In this document: positions 14,621 to 49,813 of the stretch, in pieces
Layout: every line of letters begins with the position of its first letter
Numbering within the stretch: the first letter of the stretch is position 1
Assembly (NCBI GenBank): GCA_031414535.1
Contig: JANNVQ010000024.1
Span: 1-49,813 of the forward strand
Length of the DNA stretch: 49,813 nt
Source: Gemmatimonas sp.
Lineage (GTDB): Bacteria > Gemmatimonadota > Gemmatimonadetes > Gemmatimonadales > Gemmatimonadaceae
Direction of reading: 5' to 3'
Position numbers and translations under genes: made by a program
The notes under the pieces: model-generated
What the model was told of the DNA's origin: nothing
Database searches by the model: none
Seen by the model: only the letters and a program-made list of their open reading frames with translations

Positions 14621-14759
14621 TCACCACGGAGACACAGAGGCACGGAGACTGCAGGAGCAGAAAACTTGGGGGCTCGCGCCGGAAATTTCGTTGCGAGCCC
14701 CCTCCTTTCGTCGTCGTGCTGGCAGTTGAAGTCTCCGTGACTCCGTGCCTCCGTGGTGA
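14621..14759. repeat. Gene-less octamer inverted-repeat cassette (same arms as the GxxExxY element)
   Basis: Left TCACCACGGAGACACAGAGGCACGGAGACT (14621-14650) vs reverse complement of 14730-14759, TCACCACGGAGGCACGGAGTCACGGAGACT (27/30); inner hairpin GGGGGCTCGC...GCGAGCCCCC (14668-14702). Confidence 0.9.
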
Positions 14760-46041: not shown

Positions 46042-46614
46042 GTGACCGTAAGACAGACTGAGCCCGCTACCCCGGACGATCTCCTCGACGCCGATCAGGC
46101 GGTCATTGACCGCGTGCTCGCTGGGGACCGTAATGCTTTTGGCATCCTTATCGAGCGGTACAGCGATCCGCTGTATCGTCACGCCTACGGGATGACGGGC
46201 AGTGCGGACGTCGCGGAAGACATCCTGCAAGTGTCGTTCATCAAGGCGTTTCACCATCTCGCCGAAGTGCGCGGCCGGTTCGATGCGTGGGTGTTCCGGA
46301 TTGTGGCCAATGGTTGCAAGGATTGGCTGAAGAACATCCGGCGCACGCACCTGAGCTACGAGGACGACGACCAGCCTTCGGGATTCGAGACGCCGGAGGA
46401 AGAGTTGGACCGCGGGGAACTGCGGCGCGATCTGGATGGCGCGCTGGGGGCACTCCCGGACTCGTTGCGGGAAGCATTCGTGATGAAGCACGTCGAGGGC
46501 CGCTCGTACGAAGAGATGGCGGTGTTGCTCGACACGACGGTCGGAGCCCTGAAGATGCGTGTCCACCGCGCCCGTGAGGCGCTGCAGAAGCTGCTCGAGG
46601 AGCGATACTCGTGA
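46042..46614 (+). CDS. ECF RNA polymerase sigma factor
   Basis: AEDILQVSFIKAF, WVFRIVAN, SYEEMAVLL, GALKMRVHRAR; start placed at the GTG 6 nt after TACACT (the ORF could extend to 46021). Confidence 0.9.
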   Translation: MTVRQTEPATPDDLLDADQAVIDRVLAGDRNAFGILIERYSDPLYRHAYGMTGSADVAEDILQVSFIKAFHHLAEVRGRFDAWVFRIVANGCKDWLKNIRRTHLSYEDDDQPSGFETPEEELDRGELRRDLDGALGALPDSLREAFVMKHVEGRSYEEMAVLLDTTVGALKMRVHRAREALQKLLEERYS

Positions 46615-46910
46615 TGCATGACCCGGTAGATCCCAGAAGCGAGACGGCCCAGCCGTCCACCGATTCGCGCACGCCGGCCCAGGCGGAGCCGCAGGCACTC
46701 GACCGCGAAGTGCCGATTGCCTCGCGCGAGCTTTCGTCGGCGGTGCACTCGTGGCTCGACGGCGAGCCAGTCGCCGAGGCCTCGTTGTCCGGCGCCGAGC
46801 GCGAAGTGCAGCTCTGGACGAAGATCAGCGAAGAAGCGGGGCGTCGTCGCCGGATGGTCACGCCGGCGCATGTGCCGGTGCAGATCCTCTCGAAGCTCGC
46901 GGACGACTGA
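46614..46910 (+). CDS. Small hypothetical protein, possibly a soluble anti-sigma partner
   Basis: Overlaps the sigma stop; HSWLDGE resembles the anti-sigma 'YLDGE' segment; no TM and no HxxxCxxC. Confidence 0.55.
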   Translation: MHDPVDPRSETAQPSTDSRTPAQAEPQALDREVPIASRELSSAVHSWLDGEPVAEASLSGAEREVQLWTKISEEAGRRRRMVTPAHVPVQILSKLADD

Positions 46911-46932
46911 GTTTTGCTGAGTTCTGTGGGTG

Positions 46933-46966
46933 AGGCCGGCTTCGCGATGAAGCCGGCCTTTTTTTT
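46933..46966 (+). terminator. Intrinsic terminator of the sigma operon
   Basis: AGGCCGGCTTC-GCGAT-GAAGCCGGCCT followed by 7 T. Confidence 0.9.
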
Positions 46967-47402
46967 CACCACGGAGGCACGGAAGCACGGAGACTGCTAG
47001 AGGCGCATTCGGACGATGCCCTCTTTGAGGGTGGGATTGTTGAAGTTCAGAAGTAGGCCAATTGGGAGCTTCGTGAGTCTTAGGTAAGTAAGCAGTTGCG
47101 CTTTGTGGATGAGTTCGACTTTCGAGACGCACTTAACTTCGATGATCAGTTGGCCGGCAACGACGAAGTCCGCGCGGTACGCTGGCTCAATCGTTATCCC
47201 TCTGTAGATGATGGGAATGGTGACCTCGCTCTCGAAGAGAACTCTTCTCGCGTGAAGCTCAATTGCCAGACACTTCTGATACGCGCTCTCCGGCAAGCCA
47301 GGGCCCAACGCGCGGTGCACGGCAATCGCCGCGCCAAGTACCGTCTCGCAGAGTTGATCAATCTCCATTGCAGTCTCCGTGGCTCCGTGCCTCCGTGGTG
47401 AA
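46965..47402. mobile_element. Putative GxxExxY nuclease cassette bounded by 33-bp octamer-built inverted repeats
   Basis: 46965-46997 TTCACCACGGAGGCACGGAAGCACGGAGACTGC vs reverse complement of 47370-47402, TTCACCACGGAGGCACGGAGCCACGGAGACTGC (31/33); mobility is inferred. Confidence 0.65.
46997..47368 (-). CDS. GxxExxY protein (PD-(D/E)xK nuclease-like), 123 aa
   Basis: LGPGLPESAY (GxxExxY), RADFVV...IEVK, AQLLTYL, GLLLNF; ATG at 47368 with GGAG supplied by the repeat arm. Confidence 0.92.
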   Translation of the reverse strand: MEIDQLCETVLGAAIAVHRALGPGLPESAYQKCLAIELHARRVLFESEVTIPIIYRGITIEPAYRADFVVAGQLIIEVKCVSKVELIHKAQLLTYLRLTKLPIGLLLNFNNPTLKEGIVRMRL

Positions 47403-47493
47403 CGCAGTTGTAGTTCAGCCACCCCAACACCCCCAAACCAGAATCCCGCAGCCCGTGTAGATTCTCAACTACACGCAAAGCACGGAGCATTCG

Positions 47494-48018
47494 ATGAGCG
47501 CCCATCGTCGCATTCGGCCCTCGGCCGACGAGTTCAACCCATACTATGCCGGCTACATCGCACAGGTGCCCGACGGCGATGTGGTGGAGGCATTGATTGG
47601 TGGCGCCGAGATTGCCTCGGCACTCCTCGGCGATCTTGACGAAGCCACCGCCGCGCACGCCTACGCGCCCGGAAAGTGGACGCTCAAGGAAGTGTTGCTC
47701 CACTGCGCCGACGCCGAACGCATCTTTGCGTATCGCGCGTTGCGCATCGCGCGCGGTGATTCCATGCCGCTGCCGGGCTTCGACGAGAATGCCTACGTGC
47801 CGCTCAGTGGCGCGGCGAATCGTGGCATTGATGACATCCTCGATGAGTTCGAGTCCGTGCGTGAGTCCACGGTCACGCTCTTCTCAGGATTGCCTGCCGA
47901 CGCCTGGACCCGGCGCGGGACGGCCTCAGATCACCCCGTGTCGGTGCGAGCAATCGCGTGGATCTCAGCGGGGCATTTGTTGCATCACATGGGCGTGATT
48001 CAAGACAGATACTTGTAA
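47494..48018 (+). CDS. DinB family protein
   Basis: YAPGKWTLKEVLLH, ERIFAYRALRIARGD, LPGFDEN, GHLLHH. Confidence 0.88.
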   Translation: MSAHRRIRPSADEFNPYYAGYIAQVPDGDVVEALIGGAEIASALLGDLDEATAAHAYAPGKWTLKEVLLHCADAERIFAYRALRIARGDSMPLPGFDENAYVPLSGAANRGIDDILDEFESVRESTVTLFSGLPADAWTRRGTASDHPVSVRAIAWISAGHLLHHMGVIQDRYL

Positions 48019-48097
48019 CTGGACGGAAGACGGATGACGGAAGCTTGAAGGGTGCGCCGAGCTGAGCTTGGCGCACCCTTGTAGCATCCGTCTTCCG
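48017..48097. repeat. GACGGA(T/A) heptamer inverted-repeat cassette with inner hairpin, between the convergent dinB-family gene and lpdA
   Basis: AACTG + 3 units (48022-48042); inner stem AAGGGTGCGCCGAGC-TGA-GCTTGGCGCACCCTT (48048-48080); inverted ATCCGTCTTCCG. Confidence 0.88.
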
Positions 48098-48099
48098 CG

Positions 48100-49509
48100 T
48101 TACATGTGAATCGCGCGCCCGAGCGCCGCCAACGCCGCTTCCTTCACCACTTCGCTCAGCGTGGGATGCGAGTGCACCGTCTCGCCTACGTCGTCGGCGG
48201 TGCCGCGGTACTCCATCGCCAACACGATCTCGCTCAAGAGGTCGCCGACGTTCGGGCCAATCATGTGGCAGCCGAGAATCTCATCGGTTGCCGCATCGGT
48301 GACGAACTTTACGAAACCCTCGGTGCTGCCCATCGAACGCGCGCGGCCGTTGGCGCTGAACGGGAACTTGCCAATCTTGATCGCTCGGCCGCTGGCGCGC
48401 GCCTCTGACTCAGTGAGTCCGGCCGTCGCAATCTCGGGCCAGGTGTACACGATGCCGGGCATGTTGTGGTAATGCATTGAGGCGTGGTGACCCGCGATCA
48501 CCTCAGCGGCAACCACGCCTTCTTCTTCGGCTTTGTGCGCGAGCAACTTGCCACCCACGGCGTCGCCAATGGCGAAGACGTTCGGAAGGCTGGTGCGCAT
48601 CTGCGCGTCCACCACGATCTCGCCGCGCTTGCCGAGCGCGAGGCCGAGCGCTGCCGCGTCCACGCCCGTGAGCGACGGCTTGCGGCCAACAGAGACGAGC
48701 ACGTAATCGGCTTCGAACGACTGCTGTCCACCGTCCTTCTCGGTCTCGATGACCACCGTGGTTCCCCGACGTCCGCCGCCAACAACCTTCGTGGCGACGT
48801 GAATCTCTAAGCCCTGCTTGCTGAAGATCTTGTGCGCTTCCTTGATGATGTCGTCGTCGTTGCCAGGCAGAATCGTCGGTGCGTACTCGATGACGGTGAC
48901 CTTGGCGCCAAGGCGACGCCACACGGAGCCAAGCTCGAGGCCAATGACGCCACCACCGATGACGATGAGATGCTTGGGCACTTCCGGGATGCGCAGCGCA
49001 CCGACGTTGGAGAGCACGCGCTCTTCATCGAAGGGCAGGAAGGGCAACTGCACCGGCACGGAGCCGGTGGCGAGAATGACGTGCTTGGGCGTGTAGGTGG
49101 TGAGGGTGCCGTCGAGCGCCTTCACTTCCACCACGTTGCCGGCCTTCAGCGTCCCAACACCCTTGGCCCAAGTGACCTTGTTCTTCTTGAAAAGGAACTC
49201 GACGCCCTTGGTGTTCTGCGAGACCACGTCGTCCTTGCGCTTCAGCATCTGCGCGAGGTTGAGGCTGACGCCGGCGAGTTGGATGCCGTGCTCGTTTGCG
49301 TGCTTGAGGGCGAACTCGTAGTGCTCGCTCGACGCGAGGAGCGCCTTGCTCGGAATGCAACCGACGTTGACGCAGGTGCCGCCGAGGGTGCGGTCGAACT
49401 CCACGCAGACGACGCTCAGGCCGAGCTGCGCGGCGCGGATTGATGCGACGTATCCGCCGGGTCCGCCGCCGATGACGAGGAGGTCGGGGGAGAGGTTCTG
49501 GTCTGCCAC
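48100..49509 (-). CDS. lpdA: Dihydrolipoyl dehydrogenase
   Basis: GGGPGGY, GGTCVNVGCIPSK, GGGVIGLE, LAHKAEEEG, HSHPTLSE. Confidence 0.95.
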   Translation of the reverse strand: MADQNLSPDLLVIGGGPGGYVASIRAAQLGLSVVCVEFDRTLGGTCVNVGCIPSKALLASSEHYEFALKHANEHGIQLAGVSLNLAQMLKRKDDVVSQNTKGVEFLFKKNKVTWAKGVGTLKAGNVVEVKALDGTLTTYTPKHVILATGSVPVQLPFLPFDEERVLSNVGALRIPEVPKHLIVIGGGVIGLELGSVWRRLGAKVTVIEYAPTILPGNDDDIIKEAHKIFSKQGLEIHVATKVVGGGRRGTTVVIETEKDGGQQSFEADYVLVSVGRKPSLTGVDAAALGLALGKRGEIVVDAQMRTSLPNVFAIGDAVGGKLLAHKAEEEGVVAAEVIAGHHASMHYHNMPGIVYTWPEIATAGLTESEARASGRAIKIGKFPFSANGRARSMGSTEGFVKFVTDAATDEILGCHMIGPNVGDLLSEIVLAMEYRGTADDVGETVHSHPTLSEVVKEAALAALGRAIHM

Positions 49510-49570: not shown

Positions 49571-49709
49571 TTCACCACGAAGGCACGAAGGGTCCCCAGC
49601 AAGCTTTCGGCCCCGCGACCCCAAAGAAGAAATGCTTCTCGGGGTGGCGGGGCCGTCGGATTGATGCGGCTCCCTTCGTGCCTTGTATGTCTCCTAGTGT
49701 TCGTAGTAA
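49571..49709. repeat. Degenerate gene-less octamer (CACGAAGG) inverted-repeat cassette with inner hairpin
   Basis: TTCACCACGAAGGCACGAAGGG (49571-49592); inverted CCCTTCGTGCCTT (49672-49684) and TTCGTAGTAA (49700-49709); inner hairpin 49608-49655. Confidence 0.7.
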
Positions 49710-49813
49710 GTCTTCGGGGCGGCGGCAGCTCGATCAAGGTGCCACGGGGCGCGTGAGCCCGACACGAAGTGGGAGCGCCGTCGAACCGATCGCGGGAAGC
49801 CCGAACAGCCACT

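Follow-up and report, generated by a model that had tools for sequence, protein, structure and literature searches.

A GxxExxY nuclease gene enclosed by arms of a dispersed hairpin-repeat family in Gemmatimonas: an apparently undescribed system with REPIN/RAYT-like behavior

The window considered here is a 49,813-nucleotide stretch of DNA from Gemmatimonas sp. (assembly GCA_031414535.1, contig JANNVQ010000024.1); the genome that carries it is designated G000, and other G-numbers denote the relatives with which it was compared. Close to one end of the window, a short gene for a putative nuclease is held between two inverted arms, its neighbors being, by profile matches, an ECF sigma gene, a 98-aa partner gene without a family and a DinB-family gene (dinB). 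Arm pairs of the same kind that enclose no gene (doublets) occur elsewhere in the window. The relevant features are as follows.

14621 to 14759, no strand assigned: gene-less doublet of the same family, with G-type arms and the common GC-rich core hairpin
46932 to 46960, plus strand: terminator-like stem of the sigma/sigma-partner operon; host sequence, also present in cassette-free relatives
46965 to 46997, plus strand: left arm, a TCACCAC tag and three octamer units, with a one-base overlap with the stop codon
46997 to 47368, minus strand: GxxExxY/PDDEXK_3 nuclease gene of the site-1 clade, 123 aa, ATG to TAG
47370 to 47402, minus strand: right arm, bearing a GGAG that is the likely ribosome-binding site
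47403 to 47409, minus strand: AACTGC tag outside the right arm; the element probably ends here
49572 to 49683, plus strand: gene-less A-type doublet upstream of lpd, its right arm cut by an IS110 end
49684 to 49813, plus strand: left end of an IS110-family element inserted into the arm; a parasite of the repeats, outside the system

The initial annotation described a 123-aa open reading frame occupying the interval between two inverted 33-bp arms, identical at 31 of 33 positions and each composed of TTCAC, three octamers and CTGC, and this anatomy is confirmed throughout: the left arm and the stop codon have one base in common, and the right arm stops 1 nt short of the ATG, with the GGAG located 6 nt upstream. 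The cassette had also been placed at the T-tract of a terminator, and the T tail of the stem at 46932–46960 does extend into the left arm; comparable stems are present in most empty-site loci of relatives. The true right end of the cassette probably includes the outer AACTGC tag at 47403–47409. The GC content of the gene is low (54.6%, versus 62–69% in five neighbors), as had been pointed out; the range of 47–57% proposed from three 60-nt windows describes five of the six windows of the gene (48–57%), but the full range of the six is 48–70%. Because GC3 is lower in all alleles at this site (median 0.74 versus 0.83–0.87), recent acquisition is rejected as the cause of the low GC content. No sigma-70 promoter was found at the cassette and no Rfam family matches it, apart from one chance match (E 0.95).

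Positions 46566–48367 are covered with zero differences by a metagenome contig of run X1, possibly the source of the window DNA. No credible empty-site or excision joint was found in four sequencing runs, in which contigs show presence only; the joints near arms in these runs have sides under 30 nt and probably derive from other doublets. Contig 29 of run X5, from a relative, is aligned at approximately 90% over 47383–47903, i.e., the right arm and dinB, and 212 of its letters inside the arm are not aligned at 85%, which is consistent with a sharp change at the arm. The 98-aa partner gene (46614–46910), which follows the ECF sigma gene, is kept in the genus at 52–78% identity, has no Pfam or NCBIfam match, and possibly encodes an undescribed anti-sigma factor.

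Assignment of the encoded protein to the GxxExxY family, originally made without database searches, is supported by matches to PF13366 (E 1e-39) and TIGR04256 (E 1e-40), both well above the cut-offs, and the PD-(D/E)xK-type D..ExK motif is intact, as claimed, with the GxxExxY motif present too. Across 56 sequences, E27, Y30, D67, E77, and K79 are invariant and H18, E37, Q91, and Y95 are at least 90% conserved; no conserved Cys was found among them. The structure model of the window protein is confident (pLDDT 95.7) and matches PD-(D/E)XK folds, the best being Cas4 SSO0001 (Z 8.0, rmsd 4.3, 100 aligned), which lies within 1 Z of BpuSI and other restriction enzymes; Hjc is also among the fold neighbors (Z 6.8, rmsd 3.2, 86 aligned). 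The PDB holds no sequence match, Foldseek returned no match for the model at E ≤ 0.001, and no DDE fold is found among the fold matches. Judging from the model, the protein looks like an active nuclease with an intact PD-(D/E)XK site and a Cas4/RecB-like fold. It resembles the Cas4/RecB nucleases (SSO0001, 4ic1) in fold and in having D..ExK plus the QxxxY motif. Cas4 contains a four-cysteine Fe-S cluster, whereas the window protein is only 123 aa long and has no conserved Fe-S cysteines; moreover, the Z score is middling and a common fold shows no function. The gene is under purifying selection (dN/dS 0.04–0.13 in the six computable pairs of nine). No match was found to PHROG or, at E 0.01, to the PADLOC defence models, which cover described systems only. 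In PMC3424549, the function of PDDEXK_3 is listed as "Unknown," with multiple transfers.

Not noticed in the first reading was that the cassette arms are members of a many-copy, genome-wide family. A pattern search of G000 returned 126 arms, comprising 83 G-type and 43 A-type arms, so that A-type arms exist beside a G-armed cassette, whose own left arm is outside the search pattern and hence missing from this total. These arms form 54 inverted gene-less doublets of 68–201 nt and 18 singles. Two arm patterns have 41 and 69 matches in the genome and 0 and 0 in the reversed genome. The cassette is the single pair of these arms found in G000 to enclose a gene, and the cores of the dispersed doublets are not gene remnants. 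According to crude gene calls, none of the 54 doublets lies inside a called gene, 24 of 54 lie between convergent genes (versus 84 of 942 comparable gaps), and 3 of 54 lie between divergent genes (versus 301 of 942 gaps). Their median distance behind a stop codon is 13 nt; REPs, for comparison, are reportedly located within 15 nt of stop codons. TAA accounts for 35 of the 76 stops that adjoin arms and for 410 of 2047 otherwise, and an AAC[T/G/A]GC tag that merges with TAA or TGA stops is located outside 73 of the 126 arms; therefore, the element probably supplies part of the stop codon.

The doublets fold as entire hairpins around cores specific to each subtype, and core pairing is kept by compensatory change (230/266 versus 214.8 shuffled; 125/144 versus 118.5 shuffled). 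The arms themselves are tandem octamers that pair with each other and are not self-paired. Nearest-neighbor identity among doublets is 62–94% and no two are identical; there is therefore no sign of a recent burst. Arm identity within a doublet is not above that of shuffled pairs (p 0.56, 0.97), indicating that dispersed arms are homogenized in the genome. Target duplication at the TCA ends of the 54 doublets was found in none for 3, 5, 6, or 8 nt and in one for 4 nt, the true ends probably being 6–8 nt further out. Doublets may also be nested, A inside G and the reverse (G000 C54:79718-79944 and C58:11471-11671; L127), and arm switching could possibly proceed through such nesting.

G000, which is 98.4% complete, has no GxxExxY gene besides that of the window, and genomes elsewhere in the family contain up to 10. 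A survey of 151 family genomes, one row of which is the unpublished genome G007 and no claim from which depends on that row alone, included 106 gene-bearing and 45 gene-less genomes, 25 of the latter having been taken as the complement. A generalized arm pattern was present in at least 5 copies in 38 of the 106 gene-bearing genomes versus 1 of the 45 gene-less ones; the 68 other gene-bearing genomes are without this repeat pattern, and other arm words account for some of them. The one family-level exception, G018, has 27 arm copies and no GxxExxY gene found in its 180 contigs (97% complete). In the genus, represented by 55 genomes (26 with the gene and 29 without), a level of at least 10 copies was reached by any of four repeat patterns in 22 of the 26 with the gene, as opposed to 4 of the 29 without it; two of these four genomes have contigs that end at the cassette site, and no sigma gene was found in the remaining two. 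Fisher p-values for this association are overstated because the genomes are kin and not independent. Four gene-bearing genomes of the genus (G170, G171, G183, and G196) have few or no repeats. In G168 (L085), both GxxExxY copies are in pieces (C118:52093-52439 and 49606-49827) and 34 octamer and 14 nonamer matches remain; this is a decaying system. Inverted arms beside GxxExxY genes, for which the initial annotation proposed a test, were found with a score of at least 18 at 17 of 28 top-scoring family loci (one further locus was dropped for a short flank, and in 2 of these 17 a doublet on one flank matches a doublet on the other, so that the arms do not enclose the gene) versus 1 of 150 control ORFs. 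The same score was reached at 11 of 18 loci from other phyla, two having been dropped and the remainder being mostly Bacteroidota and in several cases kin. The arm unit words vary by lineage.

Comparison of the sigma-partner/dinB junction (site 1) drew on the 30 best-matching genomes out of 52 in which sigma had a match; 29 of these 30 are relatives. The empty site that the initial annotation proposed to look for exists in 11 of these 29; in another 11 the gene and its arms are present (broken in one case), a gene-less doublet occupies the site in 2 and a remnant arm in 3, and the last 2 are uninformative. A second site (site 2) is located approximately 2.5 kb away, upstream of lpd, and in G000 the doublet at 49572–49683 appears, judging from its position, to occupy the place of the site-2 paralog of other species. 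Just these two sites accommodate 29 of the 31 informative gene loci of the genus, a count made up of 27 assigned among 29 intact or partial loci and the two broken copies of G168, which were judged from coordinates. A tree of 28 proteins contains a site-1 group of 11 rows (UFB 83), a site-2 group of 16 rows (UFB 81), one of which comes from another site, and one long branch; support for two paralog clades is moderate, and the copies are not sisters in genomes with both sites filled.

The two clades are associated with different repeat periods. Octamer repeats in at least 10 copies occur in 8/8 site-1-only, 4/4 both-site, and 2/13 site-2-only genomes, and nonamer/GGG-type repeats in 0/8, 2/4, and 10/13, respectively; summed, octamers occur in 12/12 site-1 genomes and nonamer/GGG-type repeats in 12/17 site-2 genomes. 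Regarding the two site-2-only genomes with octamers, the G164 contig ends at site 1, and the G177 arms themselves begin with an 8-nt step. G162 and G169 have site-2 genes, yet only 0–3 nonamers. A prediction made beforehand from cassette arms held for the five CACAGGG-armed genomes, which have 8–72 dispersed copies, versus 0–1 in site-1-only genomes. In G140, whose sigma gene ranks in the top two matches to that of G000, site 1 is empty and octamers number 0, against 50 nonamers; the sisters G152 and G200 differ in cassette arm type and in the A/G balance of their repeats (12/70 versus 62/17). The two arms of a cassette are alike within a locus (26.7 versus 22.6 shuffled, of 28, n = 9; 25.6 versus 19.3, n = 13; 0/5000 shuffles), and both change together. 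Overall, repeat type tracks the gene version carried, and this relation is correlational.

Individual doublet sites are also in flux. When 14 doublet sites of G000 were followed into as many as five relatives, joining of the two flanks succeeded in 50 cases; by visual count, 23 of these have a family doublet and 27 do not. Occupied sites usually bear the host's own arm word, including nonamers at both occupied sites of G140; among the cases without a family doublet, several are empty, with gaps no longer than 11 nt, and approximately eight contain an unrelated heptamer family. Sites are thus reused, with doublets appearing, disappearing, and giving way to others.

The interior of the cassette diverges much faster than its surroundings. 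Synonymous difference of the gene exceeds that of the sigma, partner, and dinB genes in 54 of 55 site-1 pairs, and that of lpd in 91 of 91 site-2 pairs. Four-fold-site mismatch, pooled over seven close pairs, is 0.24–0.28 in the partner gene, 0.64–0.66 inside the arms, and 0.29–0.35 in dinB, where no co-conversion gradient is observed (0.30, 0.29, 0.35); the weaker codon bias of the gene raises the mismatch ceiling, but not sufficiently to produce the jump at the arms. G152 and G200, which are sisters by sigma with a flanking pN of 0–0.05, have genes that differ at a pN of 0.27. AU tests on the gene tree, weakened by saturation, reject both the G152 + G200 pair (p 0.011) and a four-species host clade (p 0.041). 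Four-fold sites are near saturation and the gene tree contradicts that of the host, a combination that plain vertical descent does not explain; alleles would have been swapped in place or hypermutated. Exchange of the interior bounded by the arms fits best, with local hypermutation of the interior as the alternative. As for a vehicle of exchange, no phage match was found, and GxxExxY occurs in only 8 of 72,556 plasmid records.

The arms are also targets of other elements. Inside arms, an IS110-family element is inserted after a CT, always at the same position, at six sites in G000 (window 49684–49813; C8, C12, C43, C46, and C57) as well as in the right arm of the G200 cassette, which a full element interrupts (L091:896-2050); such insertions are the cause of several contig breaks. 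A second IS110-type element is located at a different arm position in two G200 doublets (L129, L125). As for other candidate movers, Y1/RAYT (PF01797) was found neither in G000 nor in any of the 55 genus genomes (0/55; the control was positive in 6/14), and RAYT is rejected in this role. So are a reverse transcriptase, present in 1 of 5 genomes; IS110, absent from the repeat-rich G153; and the integron integrase, present in 35 of 55 genomes, among them ten repeat-free ones. G000 does contain large integron-like cassette arrays (C3, C6, C9, C15, C36, C51, and C52) with attC-like repeats of approximately 140 nt (80–90 pattern matches), an integrase at C31:45625-46566, and, among these arrays, its single reverse transcriptase gene (C9:45871-46395).

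Other genes in G000 are similarly enclosed by arms. A four-helix-bundle gene (PF05635) lies between inverted GACGGAT heptamer arms (L001, C27:29657-30248) and constitutes a parallel gene-in-arms system; approximately 300 such heptamer arms are dispersed in the genome, including a doublet at window positions 48020–48097, between dinB and lpd. A second four-helix-bundle gene lies between inverted GAAGAGC-type arms (L002, C29:98794-99382), which yielded 41 pattern matches genome-wide. Two of 20 occurrences in G000 of the GC-rich core hairpin known from G-type doublets lie between heptamer arms (C14:285504 and C29:5523), and heptamer arms at times bracket ordinary terminator-like stems (L112), as if arms and cores recombined or arms were added around hairpins.

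The analogy with RAYT/REP systems drawn in the initial annotation is strengthened by the dispersed gene-less doublets, the negative search for a Y1/RAYT enzyme, and the tracking of the gene by repeat presence and type. The system exhibits considerable similarities to REPIN/RAYT as presented in PMC3337134 and PMC3686654: a short gene between inverted repeats, doublets that form extragenic hairpins, a single gene for each repeat type, abundance dependent on the cognate gene, syntenic genes with different repeat classes (the "orthoswitch"), and targeting of the repeats by IS110, which PMC11208160 likewise reports for E. coli REPs. There are also significant differences. The enzyme is a PD-(D/E)XK nuclease, whereas RAYT is an HUH/Y1 transposase; the arms are tandem, purine-rich 8- or 9-nt units, whereas REPs are self-palindromic; and the gene is held tightly inside a single doublet, no doublets are identical, and interior divergence is very fast. 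Considered against the REPIN/RAYT definition, the flanking of the gene by inverted cognate repeats, the dispersed extragenic hairpin doublets, and, correlationally, an abundance and type that follow the gene are all present; an HUH/Y1 enzyme beside the repeats and a short palindromic unit with a GTAG/CGTC-type tag, which REPs are said to carry, are absent.

The description of the cassette as a minimal autonomous element does not stand in the IS sense, the gene being single-copy and at the same site in 11 of 29 relatives. Synteny with vertical inheritance had been named as a finding that would count against the element; the gene is indeed syntenic, but it is not plainly vertical. Since RAYT genes are also syntenic, as stated in PMC3686654, synteny weakens IS-like mobility and leaves the RAYT analogy standing; the gene is single-copy and syntenic like RAYT, yet its tree rejects host groupings. 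The doublets also resemble integron attC sites in being imperfect hairpins of 70–200 nt that start at TAA-type stops. However, they lie between housekeeping genes, an integrase is not co-distributed, and none of the 54 has ends of the attC consensus RYYYAAC...GTTRRRY, which rules out attC identity. A search of the literature on GxxExxY, its family accessions, and repeat-term combinations, with subscription journals and supplements outside its scope, returned no description of a link to repeats. This nuclease-plus-repeat system is apparently undescribed, REPIN/RAYT-like in behavior and outside REPIN/RAYT membership.

On balance, it is somewhat probable that, within a dispersed family of hairpin repeats, the cassette is the member that bears the gene and leads a RAYT-like life in which one gene per arm type would reside at a fixed chromosomal site together with dozens of gene-less doublets. 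The protein would bind the tandem units of the arms and would nick or cut extruded cruciforms or single-stranded DNA hairpins at the ends of the element or close to them, and host repair would probably then copy another family member into the break. PD-(D/E)XK enzymes hydrolyze DNA without strand transfer, so host repair probably completes the process. Speaking against this reading, no PD-(D/E)XK enzyme is known to mobilize DNA unaided. Cutting and copying would account for new doublets behind stops, for doublet replacement at the same site, for the joint change of both cassette arms, and for interior exchange with sharp borders at the arms. The anatomy, co-distribution, arm-type matching, doublet turnover, purifying selection, and bounded divergence on which this reading draws are direct observations, and the links between gene and repeats are all correlational. 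A merely permissive role for the protein is rather unlikely: here it would resolve or process the hairpins, as cruciform DNA or as 3′-UTR RNA, repeats would survive only with a matching enzyme, and host recombination would spread them. Such a role agrees with the compensatory change in cores, with junction resolvases among the fold neighbors (Hjc, Z 6.8), and with the location of doublets at a median of 13 nt behind stops and often between convergent genes (24/54 versus 84/942), so that they are probably transcribed. It accounts poorly for the place of the gene inside the arms and for the change of cassette arms that accompanies a new dominant dispersed type.

Alternatively, the gene might be a passenger, doublets being spread and homogenized by an unknown or host mechanism and one of them happening to carry a gene, its arms converted to the local majority type. 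Homogenization of dispersed arms within the genome (p 0.56, 0.97) would be expected in that case, and the two unrelated four-helix-bundle genes in their own inverted arms in G000, together with the core hairpin that occurs with either arm family (18 versus 2 of 20), hint at a shared host mechanism. This is nevertheless unlikely, as the cargo is specific, with no other gene found inside these arms in G000, the arm period follows the protein clade, and repeats are nearly absent without the gene (1/45; 4/29, all four with the site-1 region unassembled or the sigma gene not found). Homing endonucleases likewise have site-specific alleles in filled and empty states, and PD-(D/E)XK examples exist, according to PMC3424549. 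A free-standing homing-type endonuclease, which would cut empty or foreign alleles of its own site and be copied in by gene conversion with doublets as decay products, would suit the site-specific clades, the filled, broken, gene-less, and empty alleles at one site, and the conflict with the host tree (AU p 0.011, 0.041). The flat mismatch across dinB (0.30, 0.29, 0.35), the dozens of doublets scattered over unrelated sites, whose cores are no remnants of a gene, the lack of a phage match, and the count of 8/72,556 plasmid records make this quite improbable. Least probable, and already largely refuted, is the literal reading of the initial annotation, transposition of the whole cassette as an IS-like autonomous element whose MITEs would be the doublets. 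Terminal inverted arms, gene-less derivatives, lower GC content, empty sites in 11/29 relatives, and gene counts that reach 10 in other genomes of the family recall IS/MITE pairs, but there is no DDE fold or HUH or serine transposase, the gene is single-copy and at the same site in many species (29/31 informative genus loci at two sites), no copies are identical, and no target duplication is seen at the TCA ends, beyond which the true ends probably lie by 6–8 nt.

Beyond this genus, and more tentatively than the favored reading of the cassette, it is possible rather than probable that GxxExxY proteins are the engines of a widespread, RAYT-independent repeat class, in which a minimal nuclease would cut its own tandem-unit arms and repair would copy, replace, or mutate exactly the DNA between them. 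The near-saturated divergence bounded by the arms would then be the mark of an undescribed mechanism of site-bounded exchange or diversification, and a parallel branch would be formed by the four-helix-bundle genes with arms of their own.

Finally, it should be noted what such a system would imply. If true, a very widespread family of unknown function would gain a function, and a major class of intergenic repeats would be accounted for in lineages in which no RAYT was found. The "domesticated gene plus hairpin population" lifestyle would have arisen with unrelated chemistry, and what maintains REPIN/RAYT-like pairs would become testable by comparison. In addition, the natural pairs (site-1 protein with octamers and site-2 protein with nonamers, as well as G152 versus G200) offer ready specificity tests for this 123-aa nuclease.
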